Shown here one piece after another: positions 548 to 39,669 of a stretch of 64,000 nucleotides of DNA. Numbering within the stretch: the first letter of the stretch is position 1; the number at the start of each line of letters is the position of its first letter. The stretch lies in assembly GCA_036253035.1 (NCBI GenBank), contig GCA_036253035.1_4123.1; one strand, given 5' to 3'. A model generated the notes under the pieces. It was given only the letters and a program-made list of their open reading frames with translations, was not told the origin of the DNA and did not search any database. The stretch comes from a phage. The translations under genes were made by a program, and so were the position numbers.

Positions 548-737
548 TATACCAATCCCCTATTCCCTCTAACCTTCTAAGATATCTTGCGTAAATTATT
601 TCGAAATATCTGTGCAACGAAATTACGGATTGCTCATAATCATCATTCCTGTACATTGTGCATGTCAGAAAATCATTTAACCCAAAATCTAAACTGCACT
701 TGAACTTCTCCTTAGCAACATCTCTAAAATTATTCAT
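534..737 (-). CDS. hypothetical protein (67 aa)
   Basis: Track ORF; start ATG overlaps stop of upstream small ORF (coupled). Confidence 0.45.
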   Translation of the reverse strand: MNNFRDVAKEKFKCSLDFGLNDFLTCTMYRNDDYEQSVISLHRYFEIIYARYLRRLEGIGDWYNDYV

Positions 738-891
738 AATATGTCCTCTGTACAGCGTAGGTGTACTGTGAACTCAGCACCACCAATAGGTAATCAATAT
801 TGTAAGCACGATTTCCTCGTTGACTGGCACGACTGGAATAAAGAATATTATCCACATATGTATTGAACTGATCTTCAAATAACTCTTTCAT
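730..891 (-). CDS. hypothetical small protein (53 aa, below track cutoff)
   Basis: Manually translated ATG..TAA ORF filling the 737-913 gap; stop overlaps start of 534..737; weak GGGA RBS. Confidence 0.3.
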   Translation of the reverse strand: MKELFEDQFNTYVDNILYSSRASQRGNRAYNIDYLLVVLSSQYTYAVQRTYYE

Positions 892-6470: not shown

Positions 6471-6662
6471 TTATGGATTCGGGTGCAATAAATGATCTTG
6501 GTATATTAAATGCTCTTGCGATATTGTACTCAAATAATAACTAAAATTTTCAATACCACCATTTAAATGAATTTTATAATATAAATTTATACTCACCAAT
6601 AAAGAATCATTTAAAACATTTATCGTTTTTGTATTTTTGTGCTCTTTGTGCGGTGTGTGCAT
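6471..6662 (-). CDS. hypothetical protein (63 aa), uncertain
   Basis: Track ORF in AT-rich gap; ATG preceded by AAGAGAAG; low-complexity composition. Confidence 0.3.
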   Translation of the reverse strand: MHTPHKEHKNTKTINVLNDSLLVSINLYYKIHLNGGIENFSYYLSTISQEHLIYQDHLLHPNP

Positions 6663-6810
6663 TAATGTTCTTCTCTTAAAAAGCGTTTGATGGCATAATC
6701 TAAATAAAATTCATAACACATACTATCTCTGTTCTTTATCCATATTTTGTAATCGGATTTTATATTACGCAACAAATAATTTGTATTAATTGTGTAATAA
6801 TCTAATCGCC

Positions 6811-7197
6811 CTAATCGTTCCATTTAATAGGATACTCCTTTCCTTGTACTATGTACGACAAAATCCATCCGTAATGAATAGGATGATTTTTGTCTGAATC
6901 AGGAATAAAATATAAAGCTGTACTTGGATTATGACTGAATAAATCTTTATTGTCAAATGTAAAATGTGATAATATAATTTTCCTTGTAATTGGACGAATA
7001 ACATTCTTAACACTGAACTCTGATCCTTTGTATTTTTCCGATAATTCAAATAATGCATCTGTAATTAAATCACTGAACTCTTGAATTACAAAATTCTGAT
7101 AAAATGCATTAATCTCTTTAAACTCTGTATACATTTCACTTCTTGTATTCAAAAGGAATATTACTTGTTTAAGATCCTGTACTATTGTTGGGTTCAT
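6811..7197 (-). CDS. hypothetical protein (128 aa)
   Basis: Track ORF; preferred over alternate-frame 6849..7058. Confidence 0.5.
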   Translation of the reverse strand: MNPTIVQDLKQVIFLLNTRSEMYTEFKEINAFYQNFVIQEFSDLITDALFELSEKYKGSEFSVKNVIRPITRKIILSHFTFDNKDLFSHNPSTALYFIPDSDKNHPIHYGWILSYIVQGKEYPIKWND

Positions 7198-12915: not shown

Positions 12916-13127
12916 TTTAAACTCACCGACTTCAGACGTAAGCTGCTTAACCATGCGTCTATGTAGATACTTTGATAGTTTGTCCCAATGAAGAGTAATA
13001 GCTTCATTTCAGCTATTATAACACATCGGTCCGCTTCTGCAATAGAATTATCTAAAAAAGTCCACGAGACTTTTCCTTGTATAGTTCTTAACCTATTGTA
13101 ATACTCATGCTCAGTCAGGATTTTCAT
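12912..13127 (-). CDS. LGTNYQE-family small protein
   Basis: Core FIGTNYQSI; start moved to ATG of MKILTEHEY, preceded by GGAGA. Confidence 0.6.
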   Translation of the reverse strand: MKILTEHEYYNRLRTIQGKVSWTFLDNSIAEADRCVIIAEMKLLLFIGTNYQSIYIDAWLSSLRLKSVSLK

Positions 13128-13374
13128 TCTCACGTCTCCATATCTCGGTTCTAATGTGTTGGCAGTGTGCATCGATGAACATATCTATAGATTTGGTAAT
13201 TGCTGTTTTATCAGTGCCTGTCATCAGTACAAGCATCTCTGCCTCACTATGAATTAAACGCATGATATCATAGGGTAATATTTCAGATACTGTATCATAG
13301 TGTTTTTGTCCTAGATTCTGTAATAGTTTAAAATACATTTTGTGATTTAGTCTTTGTTGCATTGTCTCTTCCAT
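13111..13374 (-). CDS. LGTNYQE-family small protein (divergent)
   Basis: Same size and position in array; core degenerated to LMTGTDKTA; start uncertain. Confidence 0.5.
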   Translation of the reverse strand: MEETMQQRLNHKMYFKLLQNLGQKHYDTVSEILPYDIMRLIHSEAEMLVLMTGTDKTAITKSIDMFIDAHCQHIRTEIWRRENENPD

Positions 13375-13598
13375 TCTCTTTGGGCTTGGCGGGTTTTATC
13401 TGATATTTCGTTTCTCAGTGCAGAGATATATCGTTGAGTGAACAGTTCTTGATAGTTTGTTCCAATGAATTTCATAAGATAAACATCACCGTTGATAACA
13501 TCCAATTCAGGTGCACCATGTAATGCATAGTTTTTTCTAAGGGTGTTAAGAAGAGAGAAGAGGGCAGTCTGATACTCAGTGCTTGATAAAGTCTTCAT
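13347..13598 (-). CDS. LGTNYQE-family small protein
   Basis: Core FIGTNYQEL; start moved to ATG of MKTLSSTEY. Confidence 0.55.
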   Translation of the reverse strand: MKTLSSTEYQTALFSLLNTLRKNYALHGAPELDVINGDVYLMKFIGTNYQELFTQRYISALRNEISDKTRQAQREWKRQCNKD

Positions 13599-13833
13599 AT
13601 TTTTCCACAATTCGTTCATTTAGTTTTATCTGTATAAGATCCATTAGTTGTTCAAGATAATCGGTACAATATTTCTCTTGATATTGGGTTCCCACAAAGT
13701 ACAGCAACCATAGCTCATGAACTTTAACTTTCATCTCGTTCCATGAAAGTTCACCGTCATCGTAGATTAGTCTTGCTTCTGGGGTGAGCTTTCGAATTCT
13801 AAGTGAATATTCATCGTTCGTCAAGTGTTTCAT
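13576..13833 (-). CDS. LGTNYQE-family small protein
   Basis: Core FVGTQYQEK; N-terminus MKHLTNDEY. Confidence 0.65.
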   Translation of the reverse strand: MKHLTNDEYSLRIRKLTPEARLIYDDGELSWNEMKVKVHELWLLYFVGTQYQEKYCTDYLEQLMDLIQIKLNERIVEKYEDFIKH

Positions 13834-13988
13834 TTACATTTATCCCTTATTAGATTTGTGAGTGCAACTATGTGTTCATGGACATAAAAATTCTGATGAG
13901 AAGTTCCAAGAAAGTACAGCATCCATCCCTCACTCTGCTCGACTTTTAGTTTAGTATCGAGTTGGTCAGATATGTTAATGAAAACCAT
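13830..13988 (-). CDS. LGTNYQE-family small protein, N-terminally shortened (52 aa, below track cutoff)
   Basis: Manually translated MVFINISDQLDTKLKVEQSEGWMLYFLGTSHQNFYVHEHIVALTNLIRDKCK; start and stop overlap both neighbours. Confidence 0.5.
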   Translation of the reverse strand: MVFINISDQLDTKLKVEQSEGWMLYFLGTSHQNFYVHEHIVALTNLIRDKCK

Positions 13989-14212
13989 TAGTTCTTTTCC
14001 TTTCTTTCTATTTGTTTCATAAGAACATTGATATACTCACCCGCAAACCTATTCTGATACTGCGTCCCCATGAATTCCAACATCCATACTTCAGCAACCT
14101 TTTCTTCAATTTCAGTCCATTGTAAGTACATCATAGTGAAGTAAATGGTGTTCTCTTTTTTTCTGGCACTCTTAGCACGGGCCTCGTATTCAAAGTTATT
14201 AATGATGTTCAT
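13988..14212 (-). CDS. LGTNYQE-family small protein
   Basis: Core FMGTQYQNR. Confidence 0.65.
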   Translation of the reverse strand: MNIINNFEYEARAKSARKKENTIYFTMMYLQWTEIEEKVAEVWMLEFMGTQYQNRFAGEYINVLMKQIERKEKN

Positions 14213-14426
14213 TACATTTGTCCATTATGTAATTAGTGAGTGCAACGATGTGCTCATGAACATAGCCTTCTTGGAAGTTAGTCCCCAGTACAGCCAACAT
14301 GCGAATCTCGGTGGTGTTTATCCTGTGTTCCCTTATAGATAAACATTCTTTTTGTGGAAGTGTAAAATATTTGTTTATTACAGCAATGATAATTTTATTC
14401 TTCTCTATATTACTTAAATGTTTCAT
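14199..14426 (-). CDS. LGTNYQE-family small protein
   Basis: Core VLGTNFQEG. Confidence 0.65.
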   Translation of the reverse strand: MKHLSNIEKNKIIIAVINKYFTLPQKECLSIREHRINTTEIRMLAVLGTNFQEGYVHEHIVALTNYIMDKCNEHH

Positions 14427-14638
14427 AGTTTGCTCCTGACGTATTTCTCAAGAGATGACAAATACTTTTCCTCATAATACTCCTGATAGTCTGTTCCCAA
14501 GAATGCACCCAAAAGTATTTCATTTTCCAATACCTCGGCTAAGTTTAAATCAGAAGTCTCTTCGTATATTATGAGGATTTCAAGTTGTCTGGCAGCGATG
14601 CGTTCAGTATATTGATATGATTTTTCTAGAATAATCAT
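14423..14638 (-). CDS. LGTNYQE-family small protein
   Basis: Core FLGTDYQEY; near-duplicate of next copy (MIIL...). Confidence 0.65.
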   Translation of the reverse strand: MIILEKSYQYTERIAARQLEILIIYEETSDLNLAEVLENEILLGAFLGTDYQEYYEEKYLSSLEKYVRSKL

Positions 14639-15502: not shown

Positions 15503-15693
15503 TAACATTTTATTCGTAATACCCCTTTATCGAAGTCGCTAAGGTTACCCGCCCTTTAGCCCCCTACGCATTTTGCCATAGTCCAATCCCTTTTATTTTA
15601 AAAAAGTCAAGGGATTACCTATGCATTTTTTTAACGCATTATTTTAAAAACGCCTTGACTTTTTTCTGAATCAGTACTAGATCCCTTTACGCA

Positions 15694-17105: not shown

Positions 17106-17322
17106 TTTATATCTCGCTCTTTTGGAGGTGGGCTGCACTATTGCCGCCCTACGAGATACATTATCTCAGTACTGATATACTTTGTCAATACTTTTTTTGA
17201 AATAGTTTTGAGTACTGGCATTACATCCACCAGCAGATAGTTACTCACCGTTATTAACTATCTTATAGATACTTCTCTGCACCCTGTGGGCTAGTTTTTG
17301 TCTATGCGTATATAATAGCAAA

Positions 17323-17352
17323 GGGACTGACCGGAGTCAATCCCTTTTTTTT
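17323..17352. terminator. intrinsic terminator hairpin (GGGACTGACCGGAGTCAATCCC + T8) with embedded minus-strand TTGACT-N17-TATTAT
   Basis: 9-bp stem with one mismatch, CGGA loop, T-run on plus side; member of 6-copy element family. Confidence 0.55.
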
Positions 17353-17363
17353 ATTCTTTTTTG

Positions 17364-19060: not shown

Positions 19061-19248
19061 CGTCTTGATTCCTTTTAGTACCAGGGAGAACCATTTCCCC
19101 CTCTCGATATAAAACATTATACGCTCATTGAGATAGTTTGCAAGTACTTTTTATAAAATAGTTTTCAGTACTGAATACTTATATAATAGATACACTTCCG
19201 CACCCTATGGGTCAGTGAGTTATCTCTCAATGAATATATAATAGCAAA

Positions 19249-19276
19249 GGGACTGACTGGAGTCAATCCCTTTTTT
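19249..19276. terminator. intrinsic terminator hairpin with embedded minus-strand promoter
   Basis: GGGACTGACTGGAGTCAATCCC + T6; same element family as 17323. Confidence 0.5.
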
Positions 19277-19284
19277 AATCTTTT

Positions 19285-19869
19285 TTATCGTGTTATAGTT
19301 ATCGCGTTAACATCACGTTTTTTATAGTACTGATTCCAGATATTGCGGGTTAAACCGTAATCAAGTACTTTAATCAAGCCGTTGCGATCCTGGCCGATAT
19401 TCTGTTTTCTGATATCTCTTATCGTTAGTGTGGATAATGTATCATCAACGTGATTGAGAGCATCAGCGAAATGGTGATGGCGTTCTACCGTATTACGTTT
19501 AATATTGTACTTTAACTCATTGCACGCGTTTACATGCTTTACACTGCCTTTGCTTGCAGTACTCAAACGATCCATAACAATAAACAGATTATCAGGATCG
19601 CATAAATGCATATGCACTTTAGCAAAGTACTGTTTAAGGTGCGGACGGTCATAATCTAAAAAATTCCATACCTTACATTCAGTTTCATTTTGTTCTACAC
19701 CCGCATCACAATTCGCGACCTTAATCACTAACCGATCATTTAAAGCGAATACAATACGGGAAGAACCCGCACCGACGATCTCCAGTCCAGCTAACCGACA
19801 AGCTGAAAGGATCTCTTTGTTGGTTTCCATTGCATGAAGTGAACGGATGAATTTAGTATAGTTACGCAT
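19285..19869 (-). CDS. putative protein kinase-like protein (194 aa)
   Basis: Gly-rich loop GAGSSRIVF, VIKVA lysine, catalytic-loop-like IRDIRKQNI, DFG-like VLDYGL; start moved to ATG of MRNYTKF with AAGGAG RBS. Confidence 0.55.
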   Translation of the reverse strand: MRNYTKFIRSLHAMETNKEILSACRLAGLEIVGAGSSRIVFALNDRLVIKVANCDAGVEQNETECKVWNFLDYDRPHLKQYFAKVHMHLCDPDNLFIVMDRLSTASKGSVKHVNACNELKYNIKRNTVERHHHFADALNHVDDTLSTLTIRDIRKQNIGQDRNGLIKVLDYGLTRNIWNQYYKKRDVNAITITR

Positions 19870-21985: not shown

Positions 21986-22270
21986 TTTGTATTCCTCTTT
22001 GTGGTTGATGTAAGTATTATACTCGTTTAATTTCTATTGTCAAACTATTTTATCAGGGGAGGTTTTCGTATGTCTTACTCCTGGACTACTTAACGGGGTT
22101 ACTTATTTCGTTCCCCGTCCTGATGTAAAACATTATACTTGATTCTAAGTACAATGCAAGTACTTTTTAAAAATAGTTTTCAGTACTTGATAGTACTAGC
22201 CACCAGCATATAATAGATACATTTATGCACCCTGTGGGTTAGATTGTTTCTATGCATATATAATAGCAAA

Positions 22271-22298
22271 GGGACTGACCGGAGTCAATCCCTTTTTT
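22271..22298. terminator. intrinsic terminator hairpin with embedded minus-strand promoter
   Basis: GGGACTGACCGGAGTCAATCCC + T6. Confidence 0.5.
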
Positions 22299-22306
22299 AA
22301 ATCTTT

Positions 22307-22456
22307 TTAAACTTGTTTTGGGTTGCGATATGTGATAGCGTTCGGGTACATTTGTTTAATGTTATTCCATGCCTGGTTAACATTGTAACCACTTGATCGA
22401 ATCAGTTGGTTACTTCCTACGCCCTGGAACACTACTTCGAATAAGAATTCTTTCAT
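22307..22456 (-). CDS. hypothetical small protein (49 aa, below track cutoff)
   Basis: Manually translated MKEFLFEVVFQG...; start overlaps stop of upstream small ORF. Confidence 0.4.
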   Translation of the reverse strand: MKEFLFEVVFQGVGSNQLIRSSGYNVNQAWNNIKQMYPNAITYRNPKQV

Positions 22457-22623
22457 GCTGCAATCCCCTCTGATTTACCTTTACGCCAGGCGTTAGCCAG
22501 TTCATTACGTTGCCATACATCCAATGCAATGTATAGTTTAGCAGTATCCCCTTTAGGGTATTCGCCAGTAGTGCCTAACCGATAAAACAGATCTTTCAGT
22601 ACTGATAATTCTACTTGGATCAT
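22453..22623 (-). CDS. hypothetical small protein (56 aa, below track cutoff)
   Basis: Manually translated MIQVELSVLKDLFYRLG...; ATGA overlaps on both sides. Confidence 0.4.
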   Translation of the reverse strand: MIQVELSVLKDLFYRLGTTGEYPKGDTAKLYIALDVWQRNELANAWRKGKSEGIAA

Positions 22624-22712
22624 TGTATTACTCCTGATTGTGTTAGTACTTCTACGATGGCATGAATGATCATAAGTACAGCTAACACAACAATCATCGG
22701 ATTCATTTGCAT
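22620..22712 (-). CDS. hypothetical hydrophobic peptide (30 aa)
   Basis: MQMNPMIVVLAVLMIIHAIVEVLTQSGVIQ; AAGGAG RBS 8 nt upstream. Confidence 0.35.
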   Translation of the reverse strand: MQMNPMIVVLAVLMIIHAIVEVLTQSGVIQ

Positions 22713-22729
22713 AAGCTGTACTCCTTCTA

Positions 22730-22942
22730 TTAATCTTTCAGCCAATGATCTTGAATGAATTTTTCACAGAATCCCTGTTTCATAGATTCTAACAGGCGTT
22801 CACGGTGAGCGGCGGCATATTGCTCAGTACTATGCGTTACGCCAGGTTGATAACGTGAAACACCGTCCGGTCCGATATATTGAACATCCCACGGTTTTTC
22901 GTTAGTATCAGACCATTTACGAACGATTAGTTGACCTTGCAT
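22730..22942 (-). CDS. hypothetical protein (70 aa)
   Basis: ATG with AGAGGAAA RBS; 5' hairpin with 8-bp stem; TTGACA-N16-TATAAT. Confidence 0.6.
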   Translation of the reverse strand: MQGQLIVRKWSDTNEKPWDVQYIGPDGVSRYQPGVTHSTEQYAAAHRERLLESMKQGFCEKFIQDHWLKD

Positions 22943-23025
22943 GTTTCTTTCCTCTTAGTGGGGAGAATCATTTCTCCCCTTCATGTAAACTATTATACAG
23001 TACTAGATTACATTGTCAATAGTTT

Positions 23026-23349
23026 TTATTCACCTTGTTTGAATTTAGTTTTCTCCATTGATTCCATGATTGCAACCAATACAGCATGGATCTCACTTAA
23101 CGCGGCATCACTAAAAGCATTAATGAATAGGCAATCATTCTCGCGAATATTTTTAATGTACTTATCAGCAGTGGTTGCGAATTCATTCAACGGCAGATCA
23201 AATGCTTTATCCCATAATGGATGGCGTAACTGTAACAGTACTGGATTATCACGGTCACCAGGTGAGAAAGTGCCTGTAATGAAACATACACCAGGGATAC
23301 TTTCGAATTGACAACGAACTTCTTTTGTGATAGTAGTATGAATATACAT
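23026..23349 (-). CDS. hypothetical protein (107 aa)
   Basis: ATG with AGAGGA RBS. Confidence 0.55.
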   Translation of the reverse strand: MYIHTTITKEVRCQFESIPGVCFITGTFSPGDRDNPVLLQLRHPLWDKAFDLPLNEFATTADKYIKNIRENDCLFINAFSDAALSEIHAVLVAIMESMEKTKFKQGE

Positions 23350-24556: not shown

Positions 24557-24618
24557 GATATTATATAGTTACATTTGTGCACCCTATGGGTTAGTGACGT
24601 TCTCGTCTTGATGTAAGT

Positions 24619-24943: not shown

Positions 24944-25087
24944 TTACATCTTGCGGATAATCTTAACAGTATCTTTCACCGATTTACCGTCTTGCTGACA
25001 TTGTTCGATCATCGCGTATTGTTCTGCGGTCAGATCCTCGCCAGTTTTTGCCAGTACTGCGTCGATGAATGAATCCAGTGCGATCAT
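24944..25087 (-). CDS. hypothetical small protein (47 aa, below track cutoff)
   Basis: Manually translated MIALDSFIDAVLAKTGEDL...; AGAGAG RBS; TTGACA-N16-TATAAT upstream. Confidence 0.4.
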   Translation of the reverse strand: MIALDSFIDAVLAKTGEDLTAEQYAMIEQCQQDGKSVKDTVKIIRKM

Positions 25088-25186
25088 TTTGTTTCTCTCT
25101 TAGGTTAAGTTAACTACTGTTTATAAAACTTATTATACAGTACTATCAAACTATGTCAATATCTTTAATAGTACTGGTAATATATT

Positions 25187-25366
25187 TTAGCGGTAGTCGT
25201 CGTATGCTTTATTCACCTGGCGAATGTAACTTTCAAAGGCTTCGTCTACCGTTTCATACTCCCGAACATAATCACCATAGGAAACTACATACATCCCTTT
25301 TTGATCTTCAAACGTCATGATGATAGAATCCAGGCCGATGATTTCAGTTTTTGCGATAATAGCCAT
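25187..25366 (-). CDS. hypothetical small protein (59 aa, below track cutoff)
   Basis: Manually translated MAIIAKTEIIGLDSII...; AAGGAA RBS; promoter upstream. Confidence 0.45.
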   Translation of the reverse strand: MAIIAKTEIIGLDSIIMTFEDQKGMYVVSYGDYVREYETVDEAFESYIRQVNKAYDDYR

Positions 25367-25449
25367 TTTAGTATTCCTTAGTAGTGTAGTTGATAAAAGT
25401 TATTATGCCAGTACTATCAATCATTGTCAATAGTACTGTGATAATATTT

Positions 25450-26097: not shown

Positions 26098-26281
26098 GAT
26101 TTGTTTCCTTATTACCAGGGGAAACCGTTTCCCCTTTCGATGTAAAACATTATACGCTTATTGAGATAGTTTGCAAGTACTTTTTAAAAATAGTTTTCAG
26201 TACTCAAACATTATATAATAGATACACTTATGCACCCTGTGGGCTAGTGAGCTATCTCTCAATGAATATATAATAGCAAAA

Positions 26282-26309
26282 TGGCTGACCGGAGTCAACC
26301 ACTTTTTTC
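26282..26309. terminator. intrinsic terminator hairpin (element family variant)
   Basis: GGCTGACCGGAGTCAACC + T6. Confidence 0.45.
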
Positions 26310-26537
26310 ATTTATTTTTAGCTTTTAGAATCGCCGCCTTTCGCGTCATGCCTTGCTTGATGTATTCCTGTACTTTCGCTTTACGTGCATTCGCTTTATT
26401 TGCTTTCGTAAACGCCGAACAACTTTTATAATTTAAGCCTGTTGGATTCATTTAAATCACCATAAAGAATAGATAGGTTACTAACAATGCCGCGATCAAT
26501 GCACCGACCAGGGCCGAACTATAGTAAGCTAATGATT

Positions 26538-26690
26538 TCATTTTTTAGCCTGAAAGTAATGTTTAATTTGTGCGGCGGTCAGTGCACAATTACGCAGGAA
26601 GTTTTCTGTATAACTGCGGCGAGTACTGAAAGAGAATTGACCTTTGCCGTTACCGATAGTAACATCAAACCGAGCGTTGTATTGTTTCAT
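26538..26690 (-). CDS. hypothetical small protein (50 aa)
   Basis: Start moved to ATG of MKQYNARF with AGGAGA RBS; track extension runs through hairpin. Confidence 0.5.
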   Translation of the reverse strand: MKQYNARFDVTIGNGKGQFSFSTRRSYTENFLRNCALTAAQIKHYFQAKK

Positions 26691-26776
26691 TTTGATTCTC
26701 CTGTTATTGGGGAGAACCATTTCTCCCCTCTATGTAAAACATTATACGCGTTTAAAAACTAATTGCAAGTATTATT

Positions 26777-27110: not shown

Positions 27111-27257
27111 CTATTTTTTAGATTTACGCAAACTTTCTACCATCTCAGGAGTAAGGCCAGGCGGGTAGGAAACCACTTCATCAACGAAACGTAAAGGGAA
27201 TACCCCAGCGAAAGGTGAACGTGCTTTCTTAGTATTACTCTTTTTTGATGCTTTCAT
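27111..27257 (-). CDS. hypothetical basic small protein (48 aa, below track cutoff)
   Basis: Manually translated MKASKKSNTKKARSPF...; hairpin and TTGCAA-type promoter upstream. Confidence 0.45.
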   Translation of the reverse strand: MKASKKSNTKKARSPFAGVFPLRFVDEVVSYPPGLTPEMVESLRKSKK

Positions 27258-27326
27258 TTCATATTCCTTAATTAGTGGGGAGAATCATTTCTCCCCTTCA
27301 TGTAAAACATTATACGCGTTTAAAAA

Positions 27327-28936: not shown

Positions 28937-29080
28937 TTACTTACTTTTTGCTTTCTTTACAGCTTCCACCTGGTCGGCCCACTCTTTACCCCATACTTGA
29001 GCGTTATAGTGATACTGACAAAGAGCAACGCCCCGTTTCAAACCAGTGATAGATTTTTTACCACATTGACAAGTTTTCAT
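28937..29080 (-). CDS. hypothetical Cys-containing small protein (47 aa, below track cutoff)
   Basis: Manually translated MKTCQCGKKSITGLKRGVALCQYHYN...; 5' hairpin and promoter upstream. Confidence 0.45.
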   Translation of the reverse strand: MKTCQCGKKSITGLKRGVALCQYHYNAQVWGKEWADQVEAVKKAKSK

Positions 29081-29166
29081 TTTTAGTTTCCTCTTAGTGG
29101 GGAGAATCATTTCTCCCCTTGATGTAATGTATTATACTTTATCTGATTTACTTTGCAAGTACTTTT

Positions 29167-29463: not shown

Positions 29464-29616
29464 TTAAAGACTATCTACGATAGCTGCCGTTTCAATAATA
29501 GACTTACCTTTTTTTGAACATGCAATAACTGCTTTAAATTCCTTTGATGACCAATCTTTCTTGCTGCATACTGACATTACTTGTAACGTGAAACAATCCA
29601 GTTCATAAGTATTCAT
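29464..29616 (-). CDS. hypothetical small protein (50 aa, below track cutoff)
   Basis: Manually translated MNTYELDCFTLQVMSVCSKK...; GAGGA RBS; TTGCAC-N16-TATAAT. Confidence 0.45.
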   Translation of the reverse strand: MNTYELDCFTLQVMSVCSKKDWSSKEFKAVIACSKKGKSIIETAAIVDSL

Positions 29617-29848
29617 CTTTAAATCCTCAGTTAGTTAAGGTGTCTTGCCTTGATGTAACTAATTATACGCCTTTCTCTTAATCGTGCAAGTACTTTTTAT
29701 TACTTTTTGCAAAATACTTTAAACGCTCTCAATCGCATTCTAACGGCCTTAACTCCACCAGCTAGGGCGATGCATCAGATAATCAGTTTAATGCGTTAGA
29801 ATCGATTCTATGAGGTGCTGACGGCATGGAATACTATAGACACAAAAA

Positions 29849-29869
29849 AGCCCACTGTATAAGTGGGCT
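29849..29869 (-). terminator. rho-independent terminator (minus strand)
   Basis: AGCCCACTTATACAGTGGGCT followed on minus strand by U6; downstream of gene 29891..30373. Confidence 0.65.
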
Positions 29870-29890
29870 AGTGATTCAGTACTTTAAATG

Positions 29891-30373
29891 TTATGCTTCA
29901 ATTTTGCGGTGAGATTCGATCCATTCCTCGCGAGTCATACCGCTTTCTTTGATTGCATCCAGTACTACCGCAATGCAGTTACCGCGTACAGGAATCAAAT
30001 GTTCTTCCCCGTTATCAAGGACAACAGTAACACGTTCTTGAATCCATTTTTTAGGCTTAGATTCCGGCTTATCTTCACCGTACTTAACCGCCAGGGCTTT
30101 ATGTGCCATTTCAATAACCACTTCCAGATCTAAACCAGACACCGCCGCCTGAATACTTTCTATTGTTGCTTGCAGTTCTGCTTCACGGGCTTTTTTCTGT
30201 TCTTCCAGTTCTGCTACCTTTTTGGCTTGTAGTTCTTTCGCTTCACTGTAAGCAATGTTAAAATTGTTGCGTACTGCTTTCATGGTATCATTATCCAGGT
30301 CAGCCAGCAATTCAGCAGCAATAACAGTATCGTTAGAAATCAGTGCTTTCAGAAATGATTTTACATTAGCCAT
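29891..30373 (-). CDS. hypothetical coiled-coil-rich protein (160 aa)
   Basis: Start moved to ATG of MANVKSFL with GAGGA RBS; long conserved leader upstream. Confidence 0.6.
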   Translation of the reverse strand: MANVKSFLKALISNDTVIAAELLADLDNDTMKAVRNNFNIAYSEAKELQAKKVAELEEQKKAREAELQATIESIQAAVSGLDLEVVIEMAHKALAVKYGEDKPESKPKKWIQERVTVVLDNGEEHLIPVRGNCIAVVLDAIKESGMTREEWIESHRKIEA

Positions 30374-30574
30374 TTTATAAATCCTCAATTAAAGTTTAAG
30401 TTAGTTTATCAAAGTTTGTTTGACGTGTCCAGTTTTTCATTCGACTTACTGGCGGTCTACTTAATGTTCCCCGTCTTGATGTAATACATTCTACGCTTTT
30501 CCCTGGTAATGTCAACTACTTTTTTAAAACTATTTTCAAAGTATACCAGTACTACGATACTACAAAAACAAAAA

Positions 30575-30595
30575 AGCCCACTGTATAAGTGGGCT
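30575..30595 (-). terminator. rho-independent terminator (minus strand)
   Basis: Identical hairpin to 29849 copy, U-run on minus strand; downstream of gene 30613..30912. Confidence 0.65.
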
Positions 30596-30612
30596 AGTGA
30601 TTCAGTACTATA

Positions 30613-30912
30613 TTATAAACAATTAATTACGCCAGTGAATGTAACTTTCTCTGTATCCATTACAGTGACAGAACCGCGTTTACTTTTTGCATCGTAATAG
30701 ATGGTCGTGCTACCCTGATCATCTTCTTCATGGTACGGGCCATTAGCAAACATTGCAGGGGCCAGTTCCAGGGATTTGGTAACGATCTCAGCCGTTTCCT
30801 CGTTAGTCATTGCAACAGTGCACTGAATGAATTTTTCTTTCGGTACATCAACGGAAGCGTTAACAGCGAAAGAGGAAACAGATAAAGCCAGGGCGATGAT
30901 TGCAGTTTTCAT
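30613..30912 (-). CDS. putative secreted/periplasmic protein with N-terminal signal peptide
   Basis: MKTAIIALALSVSSFAVNA = basic n-region, hydrophobic core, AxA-like cleavage site; TTGATA-N16-TATAAT. Confidence 0.6.
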   Translation of the reverse strand: MKTAIIALALSVSSFAVNASVDVPKEKFIQCTVAMTNEETAEIVTKSLELAPAMFANGPYHEEDDQGSTTIYYDAKSKRGSVTVMDTEKVTFTGVINCL

Positions 30913-31053: not shown

Positions 31054-31059
31054 ACTTAC

Positions 31060-31160
31060 ATAAAGACGAGATAGTCACTAACCCACAGGGTGCATAGATC
31101 CGTCTATTAAATGATTCAGTACTGCAAAATAAAGGGGATCGTTTGATCCCCTCTGTATTA
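31060..31160 (+). ncRNA. candidate small non-coding RNA (~100 nt)
   Basis: Region between plus-strand promoter and hairpin/U-rich tract; no ORF; contains family dyad motif. Confidence 0.3.
31134..31151. terminator. bidirectional terminator hairpin
   Basis: GGGGATCGTTTGATCCCC flanked by A/T-rich tracts on both sides; downstream of minus gene 31158..31379. Confidence 0.5.
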
Positions 31161-31379: not shown

Positions 31380-31466
31380 TGTAAAACTCCTTATTAGTGG
31401 GGAGAACCATTTCTCCCCTTGATGTAAACTATTATACAGTACTGGAAACTAATTGCAAGTACTTTT

Positions 31467-32964: not shown

Positions 32965-33263
32965 TTTGTAACCCTCATTCATTAGTTGATGTAAGTATTA
33001 TACGCTTTTACTTTCTATTGTCAAACTATTTTATCAGGGGAGTTTTTCATACGTCTTACTCCTGGACTACTTAACAGGGAGTTACTTATTTCATTCCCCG
33101 TCCTGATGTAAAACATTATACGCCTTTAAACATAGTTTGCAAGTACTTTTTGAAAATAGTTTTTAGTACTTTCCTATAGATACACTCCCGCACCCTATGG
33201 GCTATCGCCTTGTGTCCGGCTTGTAAGTATTATCTCACTAAGCCGGATAACGGTCAAGTACTT

Positions 33264-34646: not shown

Positions 34647-35086
34647 TACTACATAGACGCGAGAAAGCGGATACCCCTGGGGGGTGCGGAATTACGCCCA
34701 AAATTCATATAATTTAAAAAGGATACACTCCCGCACCTTAGCAGGTCATAGCACTTTCTCAGTACTGAATAATAGTATCATAGTACGCCCCAGGATGGCA
34801 AGCAAATTAATTAAAACTTTTTGCGTTTAGGGTATTGCTTTATTTTTTCAGTACTGCTATAATATTTTCATCAAGTCGAGAAAGACTCAAGCCCACCGGG
34901 TGCATAGTTACGCCCAAAATTCAGTACTGAAAAAAATTTTAAAAATATCCGTCCAGGCCGTTGACATTGCCCCCAGTTTATAAGATAATGATTCCAGATT
35001 CAGAAAAATCTAACTCCAGATACTGCGGGGAAACTATCCCCACGCGGTAGGGGAACTATTGGAAAAAACAAAATAAAATTTTGATT

Positions 35087-35200: not shown

Positions 35201-36051
35201 TACTTCCAGACTTCTGGAGGGCTAGACATATCTACGTCCAAAATCCATCCAGGGTAACTACGCCCAAAATCCGTCAGTACTATACCATAGATCTATCTTG
35301 TGAAAGGAGTATTCAGTACTGCCATCATAGCCCTCACTATGTTACCCTAGGAGGATGAAGACTATCATGTAGTACTGAATACTGTTAGAGGGAATCCACC
35401 AGCACAAGCTGGTGGCATAATGCTTTAGATTAAAATCAGTACTGACACCATTCTGTTAATATCAGTACTGTTATTACGATTTTCATATGAGGTTCAAAAA
35501 GATGTACCACCACAGGAGGAACTATCTTTTCTGTACTGTCTCACGACAGGAGGTAGAGTAAATGAATTGTTGGCAGCAACTCATCTCTCTATGTAGAACA
35601 TTATACAGTACTGAATCATAATGTCAATAACTTTCTTTCATTATTCAGTACTGATATTCTTGAGAACTACCCGTCTACAAACATCATTATATCCCACAAA
35701 TCATAAACGTCCCAACGTAAATTTCAACTTTCGAAGATCCAACTTTTATTTCATAGGTACTCCAAAATTTTTAGGATCGAGATTTAGGATGGAGTACTAA
35801 CCAACTTTTTGCTGGAGCCTCAAGGGGTAATGGAATTTTACCCCGAAGGGTAAAAGGGTAATTGTAATTAAGGTGAAAGTAATAATTCAGTACTAATCAT
35901 TGCGTGATTACTTTTGATTACATTTGATGTAATTTGCAAAATGGAAAAGGAGCTTGGAAACTACAAAGTACGGCAGACTTCCTCTGCCTACTTAGTGGCA
36001 TATCAGTACTGCTACGTTCTTGATTAAACGTGAACATTCCTGTACTCTAGT

Positions 36052-38450: not shown

Positions 38451-38630
38451 TTATATAGATGCCAGGGCGAGGATTTCCCTGTAGGGATTATCTTGTGTTA
38501 GTACAGCATAAATGCAGCTATTGAGATTAATATTTTTAGTACTTTTTGTTCCTAGTTTGTAGTACTTCACGAAGGTGTCGTACATGAAACGGTCTTTTAT
38601 GGTTATACGTTCTCTATAGAATTGTTGCAT
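38451..38630 (-). CDS. MHKEYY-family small protein (59 aa, below track cutoff)
   Basis: Manually translated MQQFYRERITIKDRFMYDTF...; AAGGAA RBS. Confidence 0.45.
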   Translation of the reverse strand: MQQFYRERITIKDRFMYDTFVKYYKLGTKSTKNINLNSCIYAVLTQDNPYREILALASI

Positions 38631-38638
38631 AGTATTCC

Positions 38639-38821
38639 TTAAATAGCGATTAGTTTCATTACTTCTCTGTATGTGTACTTTTCGTTTTGTGCATCTCTTG
38701 TGACGACATATAGGAAGGTGTGTTTATCTTTTTTGTTCCCGCAATTGTAGAAAATATTGAACTTATTGAAGTTGAATCTTTCGGCGTGTTGTAGTTTAGT
38801 TAAATAGAATTCTATGTTCAT
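38639..38821 (-). CDS. MHKEYY-family small protein
   Basis: MNIEFYLTKL...KYTYREVMKLIAI. Confidence 0.55.
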   Translation of the reverse strand: MNIEFYLTKLQHAERFNFNKFNIFYNCGNKKDKHTFLYVVTRDAQNEKYTYREVMKLIAI

Positions 38822-38829
38822 TTTCTTCC

Positions 38830-39015
38830 TTACATTTCAATAAGTTTAATTACTGCTCGGTACGTGTACTTAGTTGTCAGTGCTTCTTTAATAGAAATAC
38901 AGAAGTAATGTTGTTTGTCTCTTATACTGCCGCGTTTGTAGTACCACACATGGGAGTTGTGACTGTACTTGTCTCTGTCGGATAGTTGTTGGTAGTAGTA
39001 GCTTATATGATTCAT
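38830..39015 (-). CDS. MHKEYY-family small protein
   Basis: MNHISYYYQQL...KYTYRAVIKLIEM. Confidence 0.55.
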   Translation of the reverse strand: MNHISYYYQQLSDRDKYSHNSHVWYYKRGSIRDKQHYFCISIKEALTTKYTYRAVIKLIEM

Positions 39016-39067
39016 TATAATGTAATTAGCCTTACTATATTAAAGTACTCAGTTCCTGTTGCACCTT

Positions 39068-39262
39068 TTAGAACTTAAAGATGAGGTTCAGGATAGAGCG
39101 GTACTTAGTTTCAGGGAACGTATGTTCTATTGCATAACGTGTCACCATCCTGAAATCGTAATTATAATACAGATTATCCTTTCTCATAGGTGGTGCTAAA
39201 GAGAATGATAGCTGTTCTTGTTTGGGTAGTTTACTACAATAGAAATCTTTATGATTATTCAT
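39068..39262 (-). CDS. MHKEYY-family small protein
   Basis: MNNHKDFYCSKL... Confidence 0.55.
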   Translation of the reverse strand: MNNHKDFYCSKLPKQEQLSFSLAPPMRKDNLYYNYDFRMVTRYAIEHTFPETKYRSILNLIFKF

Positions 39263-39464
39263 AGAAATATATTAGTCCTATTAAACCTGAGTACATAATA
39301 TTTTTGTTATTACATTCGATTGCTTCTAGAGTACTACGTATACAATTATTAAAGCAATCTCTGGCGTGTGGTGTATCTATACTTAAAGGTGATACACTCC
39401 TTAGAAACAATTGTTCTTCGTTGCTAAGGTATTTGGTGTAGAATTCTTTATGTTCAGTATTCAT
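39255..39464 (-). CDS. MHKEYY-family small protein
   Basis: MNTEHKEFYTKYL... Confidence 0.55.
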   Translation of the reverse strand: MNTEHKEFYTKYLSNEEQLFLRSVSPLSIDTPHARDCFNNCIRSTLEAIECNNKNIMYSGLIGLIYFYE

Positions 39465-39465
39465 A

Positions 39466-39669
39466 TTAGTACTCGATTAAAAGGGCAAGGATATAATAGT
39501 ATTGCATACTTTCTGCCCCTTGTAAAGCATTTCTTATGATATTACTCCTGTACGAGTTCAGGAGTTTAGGACAACGTTTGTAGTGTATAAAAGTATTTTG
39601 TGTATACAGTAGGCTTTCTCGTAGACCTTTTGTTGGTAGTGCATCGATGTAGTACTGTTCAATGTTCAT
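39466..39669 (-). CDS. MHKEYY-family small protein
   Basis: MNIEQYYIDAL... Confidence 0.5.
   Translation of the reverse strand: MNIEQYYIDALPTKGLRESLLYTQNTFIHYKRCPKLLNSYRSNIIRNALQGAESMQYYYILALLIEY

Follow-up and report, generated by a model that had tools for sequence, protein, structure and literature searches.

The question raised by this locus is whether three short, overlapping open reading frames on the minus strand, of 30, 56 and 49 aa, are genuine genes. An earlier note on the 64,000-nt stretch of phage DNA analyzed here (the window) had proposed that these three frames, hereafter the trio, and eight further small ORFs are coupled genes hidden only by the 60-aa cutoff of the ORF display. 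The ORFs exist as described, all of them on the minus strand and each running from an ATG to a single stop codon. For every one, a homologue is annotated as a CDS in some published relative, which bears out the proposal. We consider it highly probable that the trio are genuine protein-coding orthologues of genes gp298, gp299 and gp300 of phage 121Q, forming the last three cistrons of an early gp297–gp300 unit of Asteriusvirus. The small genes are real but already annotated as hypothetical proteins in published relatives, which makes the finding correct but ordinary; nothing in it would surprise a phage genomicist. The display cutoff conceals about a dozen real genes in the window, and the value of recovering them lies mainly in quality control.

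To place the window, 21.4–23.6 kb and 15–40 kb were queried by megablast. The sole matches were Asteriusvirus jumbo coliphages and their Salmonella and Klebsiella relatives, including 121Q, phAPEC6, PBECO4, JP4 and vB_Ec-M-J, at 85–98% identity and in a mosaic pattern. Judged by these matches, the source of the window is an Asteriusvirus, a 121Q/PBECO4-like jumbo coliphage. At the trio, 121Q genes 298–300 (AIT14188–AIT14190) and their counterparts in phAPEC6, G17 and PBECO4 encode proteins 100% identical to those of the window, from DNA that is 99.1–99.8% identical, with the same gene order, the same overlaps and the same flanking gp297 and terminator. The trio shows no difference of substance from 121Q.

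Public annotations of the trio locus disagree among relatives. The 121Q record (KM507819) carries genes 298 (93 nt), 299 (171 nt) and 300 (150 nt) at this position, and all three are likewise annotated in G17 and Turkey5. In phAPEC6, PBECO4, slurp01, A4, Ecwhy_1 and vB_Ec-M-J, the 56/57-aa and 49-aa genes are annotated and the 30-aa gene is not. UE-S1, which is without the 30-aa ORF, carries, besides the 49-aa gene, a CDS of 91 aa that spans the 57-aa ORF. The records of JP4 and ELP-22 hold the 30-aa and 57-aa genes together with plus-strand ORFs called over the intact 49-aa gene, which are probably mis-calls. PHROG families were found for six of the ten small proteins scanned, all categorised as “unknown function”, and Pfam returned nothing above threshold for ten of the small proteins.

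Since hypothetical-protein annotation in GenBank is automatic, such records could also be explained by chance open frames in conserved non-coding DNA that were annotated in relatives by default. The genome is AT-rich (~37% GC), and the intergenic DNA adjoining the trio is conserved and repeated without coding and draws spurious ORF calls in JP4 and ELP-22. However, ORFs of at least 30 aa starting with ATG cover 92% of a 441-nt region here, against a shuffle mean of 15.5%, a coverage matched in only 5 of 20,000 shuffles. The substitution pattern also argues for coding, as seen in a locus alignment with 14 relatives at 75–99.9% identity. The 49-aa frame is open at exactly 49 codons in 14/14 relatives, with 107 of its 146 differences at third codon positions. 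The 56/57-aa frame is intact in 13 of the 14, the exception being CMSTMSU, an UNVERIFIED record with several 1–2-nt indels, and its third positions take 205 of 373 differences. Values of pN/pS, each summed over pairs of closely related genomes that are not independent, were 0.10 in frame versus 2.96 and 1.69 in the other frames for the 49-aa gene, 0.32 versus 0.98 and 2.83 for the 56-aa gene, and 0.12 versus ~2.8–3.0 for the orthologue of gp297, an annotated control gene; across the trio, the in-frame values of 0.10, 0.32 and 0.32 compare with an out-of-frame range of 0.44–5.6. The conservation in related genomes that had been named as a check is thus present in both the alignment and tblastn searches, with the frames kept and the substitutions of a coding type.

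Protein families that hold a constant length at low identity, and across eight host genera, further oppose an origin of these frames by chance. The 56-aa protein aligns over residues 1–55 with positions 1–55 of the 58 in the phrog_10572 profile (E=3.4e-28), and an exhaustive profile search gathered 18 cluster representatives with identity down to ~30–35%, all of 53–65 aa. Positions G17, L34–D35 and G49 are invariant in an alignment of 22 members. By tblastn, the family is found in 62 phage records, whose names cover eight bacterial genera and among which are RaK2, K64-1, Muenster, GAP32, CBB, fHe-Yen9-03/04, Serratia BF and Erwinia pEa_SNUABM_44/47/49; in these named phages, the homologue is a stand-alone gene. 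The 49-aa protein matches the phrog_37188 profile over residues 1–49 of 49 (E=3.6e-40), and its family comprises four clusters at 76–98% identity, all of 49 aa. Only close Asteriusvirus relatives were matched in word-indexed homology searches. At the sequence level, the 56-aa protein is common to all Rak2-like jumbo phages and the 49-aa domain is confined to Asteriusvirus. ORF integrity, purifying selection at the protein level, family distribution and, for the two larger products, confident folds (described below) are all observed for the trio genes. For the 49-aa and 56-aa ORFs, the chance-frame explanation is largely refuted, and we give it next to no probability. On this comparative evidence, gp299 and gp300 are no longer just gene-caller output but small proteins with good support.

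Of the trio, the 30-aa ORF has the weakest support. It is 100% identical to an annotated CDS, AIT14188 (121Q gp298), but among 36 relatives with the locus it is present in 22 and absent in 14, and about half of its carriers leave it unannotated. In five of the 14 aligned relatives (ECO103, Ecwhy_1, vB_Ec-M-J, UE-S1 and CMSTMSU) a cassette of promoter plus hairpin takes its place; Turkey5 and A4 have both a homologue and the cassette. Its pN/pS, summed in the same way over non-independent pairs, is 0.32 in frame and barely below that of frame +1 (0.44), and no PHROG family matches it. These features would suit a locus with just two genes, the 56-aa and 49-aa ORFs, the 30-aa ORF being a dispensable open spacer. 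Three features of the ORF oppose a spacer. It has the strongest Shine–Dalgarno (SD) site of the unit (AAGGAG, at 8-nt spacing) and is joined to the next gene through ATGA. Second codon positions seldom change, taking 9 of 102 differences. The diverged homologue in Turkey5 and A4, at 37% nucleotide difference, is still open at 29 codons, keeps 24 of 29 BLOSUM-positive positions and retains the hydrophobic core (19-residue hydropathy of at least 2.1). In the window, the peptide has a Kyte–Doolittle 19-residue mean of 2.65 and is predicted to form a single hydrophobic helix, which is probably membrane-inserted. We regard the spacer as an unlikely explanation and a real membrane peptide as the likely one. 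An alternative TTG start 33 nt upstream would give 41 aa; 121Q annotates the ATG with AAGGAG.

The arrangement of the trio points to a single transcription unit read from the minus strand. Its first cistron is the 70-aa orthologue of 121Q gp297 (22730..22942), which exceeds the 60-aa cutoff. The 30-aa ORF (22620..22712; gp298) begins 17 nt past the gp297 stop and is followed by the 56-aa ORF (22453..22623; gp299, phrog_10572) and the 49-aa ORF (22307..22456; gp300, phrog_37188), the ATG of each of the latter two overlapping the preceding stop as ATGA (22620–22623 and 22453–22456). SD sites AAGGAG, AGGAG and GAGG(GG) lie 7–10 nt 5' of the respective start codons, those of the 56-aa and 49-aa cistrons being embedded in the preceding ORF. 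Upstream, a predicted sigma-70 promoter, TTGACA-16-TATAAT (22992..23019, minus strand), scores 12/12 in a promoter scan, with the gp297-like ATG following 49 nt downstream. A 5'-leader hairpin, GGGGAGAA-atga-TTCTCCCC (22960..22979, minus strand; predicted −13.9 kcal/mol), is followed by ACTAA and the SD AAGAGGAAA, so that the gp297 orthologue is preceded by ACTAAGAGGAAAGAAAC-ATG. A 25-mer of this GGGGAGAA/TTCTCCCC hairpin occurs in five copies in the window versus none expected. Upstream of the promoter lies an extra 107-aa gene (23026..23349), present in JP4 and ELP-22 and absent from 121Q and phAPEC6.

The unit ends at a 12-bp hairpin, AAAGGGATTGAC-tccg-GTCAGTCCCTTT (22268..22295, minus strand), at which the G17 record has an annotated terminator. 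Further copies stand at 26305..26278 and near 19290 and 17360, with compensatory changes in the stem. As the hairpin is without a clean U-tract, its termination efficiency is uncertain. It overlaps a second promoter, TTGACT-17-TATTAT (22288..22260). Across the unit, same-strand scans gave promoter-like sites of at least 10/12 only at 23019 and 22288 and a sole hairpin at 22295, with no promoter or terminator inside the trio. With the only strong upstream promoter at 23019..22992 and no internal signal of either kind, the trio is best read as the last three of four cistrons in one operon, for which termination–reinitiation coupling is predicted from the ATGA overlaps. Under this model, host sigma-70 RNA polymerase would initiate at the consensus promoter 23019..22992, and the mRNA would carry the stable GGGGAGAA/TTCTCCCC hairpin at its 5' end. 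Ribosomes would load at the gp297 SD and, 17 nt after that cistron, at the 30-aa cistron through its own strong SD; the 56-aa and 49-aa cistrons would be translated through coupling at the ATGA overlaps, and transcription would stop at hairpin 22295..22268.

The timing of expression is suggested by the genomic setting. The locus lies in a region of tightly packed small minus-strand genes with a near-consensus sigma-70 promoter ahead of each gene or short operon, and a promoter scan of 20.5–30.5 kb found nine sites with perfect TTGACA-16/17-TATAAT on the minus strand. The record of vB_Ec-M-J places the trio locus within the direct terminal repeat, and in Muenster and CBB the 56-aa homologue is annotated within theirs. 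Window positions 15,542..~36,000 align to the 21,525-bp right repeat of vB_Ec-M-J, and published terminal-repeat sizes of relatives are consistent with a direct terminal repeat of ~21 kb (PMC13070987). The unit lies in DNA homologous to this repeat and would probably be present in two copies per virion genome; both the repeat membership and the timing are read from relatives and not from this genome's own termini. CBB has a concentration of RpoD-like promoters among its short hypothetical ORFs that reaches into the terminal repeat, and the authors suspect a role in host takeover (PMC5259590). PA5oct, a Pseudomonas jumbo phage of the same clade, likewise has a long direct terminal repeat packed with early small genes. 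At 5 min, host RNA polymerase transcribes the genes of its 39-kb repeat at high levels, and 49 small CDSs that automatic calling had overlooked were added from RNA-seq (PMC7318152). The likeness of PA5oct to the trio is one of organisation, and the expression data come from PA5oct alone. From the position of the unit in terminal-repeat-homologous DNA and the published work on relatives, we infer that the trio is probably expressed early and in dependence on host RNA polymerase. As the region is likely the first to act in infection, gp299 and gp300 are reasonable candidates for host-takeover screens.

A similar organisation is known from the hyperplastic regions of T4-type phages, where promoter/stem-loop cassettes (PeSLs) flank tiny ORFan genes and mediate shuffling (Arbiol 2010, PMC2839356; Comeau 2014, PMC4122927). 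As in those regions, runs of tiny ORFan early genes in the window are split by near-consensus sigma-70 promoters, stem-loops and SD sites, and genes come and go between close relatives at the cassettes, as when the 30-aa gene is swapped for a cassette in five of them. In PeSLs, however, the stem-loop stands just upstream of the promoter and serves as terminator for the preceding gene (PMC4122927), whereas the 22295..22268 hairpin overlaps the −35 element and the commoner GGGGAGAA hairpin sits in the 5' leader, past the −10. Because the hairpins lie on the −35 or downstream of the −10 and not upstream of the promoter, we do not class these elements as PeSLs.

AlphaFold2 models were confident for both larger products of the trio, which again opposes chance frames. 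The 56-aa protein is modeled as a three-helix fold (pLDDT 90.1) and the 49-aa protein as a β-β-α-β fold (pLDDT 93.6). Foldseek against BFVD recovered 48–49-aa look-alikes of the latter, one of them from CBB (26% identity, TM 0.82). Against the PDB, neither model had a match with E<0.1. The trio products are too small for enzymes and are not mentioned in the text on the phAPEC6 virion proteome; they would most likely be small binding or modulating proteins acting in host takeover or counter-defence.

A more specific proposal would make the 49-aa protein an inhibitor of host RNA polymerase in the manner of T7 Gp2, and the trio a module for transcription shut-off. T7 Gp2 is a small early phage protein of the same size and the same β-β-α-β topology, the position of the trio among early genes would fit, and Foldseek aligned the model to 4lk0_M (T7 Gp2) with a probability of 0.96 (TMq 0.68, TMt 0.66). 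Yet this match is not significant (E=0.36), is accompanied by no sequence similarity (12% identity) and is equalled by crAss001 vertex proteins and archaeal ribosomal proteins. T7 Gp2 acts through an acidic surface, whereas the 49-aa protein is of opposite net charge, being net basic (5 K/R versus 2 D/E by direct count). We therefore judged the likenesses to T7 Gp2 and to the crAss001 vertex protein to be generic β-β-α-β matches and treat the former as a resemblance only; an inhibitor of the Gp2 type is very improbable, and the broader reading of small binding or modulating proteins is retained.

The eight other small ORFs are likewise orthologues of annotated small genes, their DNA matches falling at annotated CDSs of 121Q, ELP-22 or vB_Ec-M-J. 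Substitution counts are small and point in the same direction as in the trio. The earlier note had ascribed to all the small ORFs the same promoter/hairpin/SD context as their annotated neighbours, and this is true of two, each with its own promoter, GGGGAGAA hairpin and SD: the 48-aa ORF at 27111..27257 (minus strand), an orthologue of ELP22_0704 and EcMJ_617, and the 47-aa, Cys/His-containing ORF at 28937..29080 (minus strand), an orthologue of 121Q gp280, in which third codon positions take 10–11 of 13–14 differences. It is partly true of two more, which have a promoter and an SD and no leader hairpin: the 47-aa orthologue of 121Q gp291 (24944..25087, minus strand; phrog_34103), with its own TTGACA-16-TATAAT at 25159..25132, and the 59-aa orthologue of 121Q gp290 (25187..25366, minus strand; phrog_9374), with its own promoter at 25430..25402. 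The description does not apply to the trio or to three other ORFs, all of them internal cistrons that have no promoter of their own. These three ORFs are the 53-aa orthologue of 121Q gp361 (730..891, minus strand; phrog_29794); a 52-aa short member of a tandem array of ~70–90-aa paralogues (13830..13988, minus strand; phrog_4148), with stop/start overlaps on both sides; and a 59-aa member of a tandem array of ~60-aa paralogues, orthologous to 121Q gp255 (38451..38630, minus strand). Nor does it apply to the 50-aa ORF at 29464..29616 (minus strand), assigned by orthology to 121Q gp278 (86% identity), which has no promoter site of at least 10/12 within 400 nt upstream. No PHROG match was obtained for the ORFs at 27111, 28937 and 29464.

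The note had the listed ORFs filling gaps that would otherwise stand empty, but not every gap contains an ORF. The 320-nt gap directly downstream of the trio is non-coding and carries a repeated, promoter-driven and covarying two-hairpin element, CCCAYAGGGTGC. A composite terminator/promoter (22295..22260) starts 12 nt past the trio, the closing hairpin of the unit containing the −35 of TTGACT-17-TATTAT, and CCCACAGGGTGC lies ~25 nt downstream of the −10 of this promoter (22288..22260), which drives the element (22205..22263, minus strand). Over ~60 nt, the element is made up of a short leader hairpin, its loop rich in purines, and then a nearly invariant R-CCC-AYM-GGG-U-GC box. The box occurs eight times in the window versus 0.11 expected, and a covariance model added two more diverged, convergent copies at 34650–34772, in which the second helix is CCCC/GGGG and CCU/AGG. 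The ten copies all lie in terminal-repeat-homologous DNA, on both strands and in some cases as convergent pairs. A sigma-70-like promoter stands ahead of every copy, and most have a 3–5-bp purine-loop hairpin between start site and box.

Covariation in the element was assessed on 41 distinct copies, aligned without gaps and anchored on the box. The covarying first stem takes at least 12 different sequences. Both sides change in all four of its pairs, and the covariation score of 0.283 compares with 0.145±0.017 for shuffles (0/500 reach it) and 0.03–0.12 for slid partners. RNAalifold on a MAFFT alignment recovered the invariant CCC/GGG helix only, because the variable leader was misaligned there. 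An alternative helix between GGGUGC and a downstream RYNYRYCY is paired in 83% and shows one-sided changes only.

No Rfam family reached its gathering threshold anywhere in the window. Sub-threshold matches to Trp_leader and SR1 in 17–35.5 kb were taken as chance, and hammerhead, preQ1 and pistol-type motifs, none of them proposed by Rfam, were dropped when core nucleotides were found by eye to be missing. The searchable literature held nothing relevant on the box sequence, and the RaK2 genome paper is without a promoter or intergenic-motif analysis. We tentatively suggest, at somewhat less than an even chance, that the element represents a family not described before, either of phage small RNAs or of 5' leaders acting in cis. 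It might serve in the processing or stabilisation of RNA, in antitermination of a put/nut-like kind within an early region dense in terminators, or in priming replication from a transcript. Most matches from a 14-mer scan of IMG/VR were due to chance, and the full architecture appeared in jumbo-phage contigs only. The same order of promoter, hairpin and box follows the gp299 homologue, and recurs elsewhere, in RaK2, GAP32, CBB, fHe-Yen9-04, Serratia BF and uncultured jumbo contigs.

The gap downstream of the three small minus-strand genes at 22307..22712 (30-, 56- and 49-aa products) holds one copy of a non-coding repeat, the box element. Its order is a sigma-70 promoter, predicted from sequence, followed by a 'CAU' start, a hairpin of 3-5 bp with a purine-rich loop, and the motif R-CCC-AYM-GGG-U-GC. 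Ten copies were found in the window, every one within terminal-repeat-homologous DNA: 17257..17315, 19178..19236, 22205..22263, 24557..24615, 26210..26268, 33168..33226 and 34711..34772 on the minus strand, and 31057..31115, 34650..34709 and 34867..34925 on the plus strand, some of them forming convergent pairs. The box element is kept in RaK2, GAP32, CBB, Serratia BF, Yen9-04 and uncultured jumbo contigs, and its first stem covaries across at least 12 stem sequences (covariation of 0.283 vs 0.145±0.017 in shuffles). No match to it was found in Rfam or in the literature searched.

A second repeated design combines a terminator-like hairpin with a TTGACT-17-TATTAT promoter, the -35 (TTGACT) lying inside the stem and loop. 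Copies occur on the minus strand at 22268..22295, 26278..26305, ~19265..19294 and ~17335..17361, and are distinguished by compensatory stem changes (GGGA/TCCC vs GTGG/CCAT). RaK2 and Yen9-04 share the composite design with different stem sequences.

The palindromic hexamer AGTACT, which flanks the box element, is present in 237 copies across the whole window, compared with 20.4±4.4 expected. It is dense at 15.6-40 kb and absent from 1-7.5 kb, and about half of the copies lie in coding ORFs. Most of the predicted early promoters carry it within the spacer, as AGTACTGTATAAT or AGTACTGGCATAAT. A 25-nt 5'-leader hairpin, GGGGAGAAATGATTCTCCCCACTAA, precedes five different small genes or operons in near-identical form (22955..22979, 26704..26728, 27272..27296, 29094..29118 and 31394..31418, all minus strand), each time between the -10 and the SD; zero copies would be expected by chance.

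vB_Ec-M-J has a right direct terminal repeat of 21.5 kb, which aligns to window positions 15542..~36000; the inner boundary of this aligned stretch falls at a change in GC-skew sign near 36 kb. Tandem arrays of paralogous small genes are located at 13111..14638 and 38451..39669 (both minus strand). One paralogue family, of ~70-90 aa, matches phrog_4148 and has a common 'LGT..Q' motif, and a second comprises proteins of ~60 aa. RCC1-like 'DNA condensation' genes come next, in an array of their own (~40-57 kb, plus strand).

Cassette-type polymorphism distinguishes the relatives at two places, 22713..22729 and 23026..23349. ECO103, Ecwhy_1, vB_Ec-M-J, UE-S1 and CMSTMSU carry promoter TGTATAAT with a GGGGAA..TTCCCC hairpin instead of the 30-aa gene; Turkey5 and A4 have gene and cassette together. 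The 107-aa gene at 23026..23349 has a counterpart in JP4 and ELP-22 and is absent from 121Q and phAPEC6.

Beyond the small ORFs listed in the earlier note, the gaps hold more minus-strand ORFs of under 60 aa with an ATG and SD. One of 53 aa, at 6662..6823, is conserved in 121Q; those at 17138..17221, 26452..26541, 33021..33116 and 35918..36037 (27-39 aa) overlap intergenic DNA that is repeated, and they might not be genes. In JP4 (L002 2093..2471) and ELP-22 (L006 6334..6711), plus-strand ORFs 120 and 153 nt long are annotated across the non-coding element and the intact 49-aa gene, itself unannotated there; these calls are likely mis-annotations. Two Rfam Trp_leader matches, at 29842..29906 and 30568..30640 (minus strand), score 27 and 26 bits, below the gathering score of 41, and probably reflect chance or generic terminator similarity; one coincides with a terminator-like hairpin at 29869..29849.
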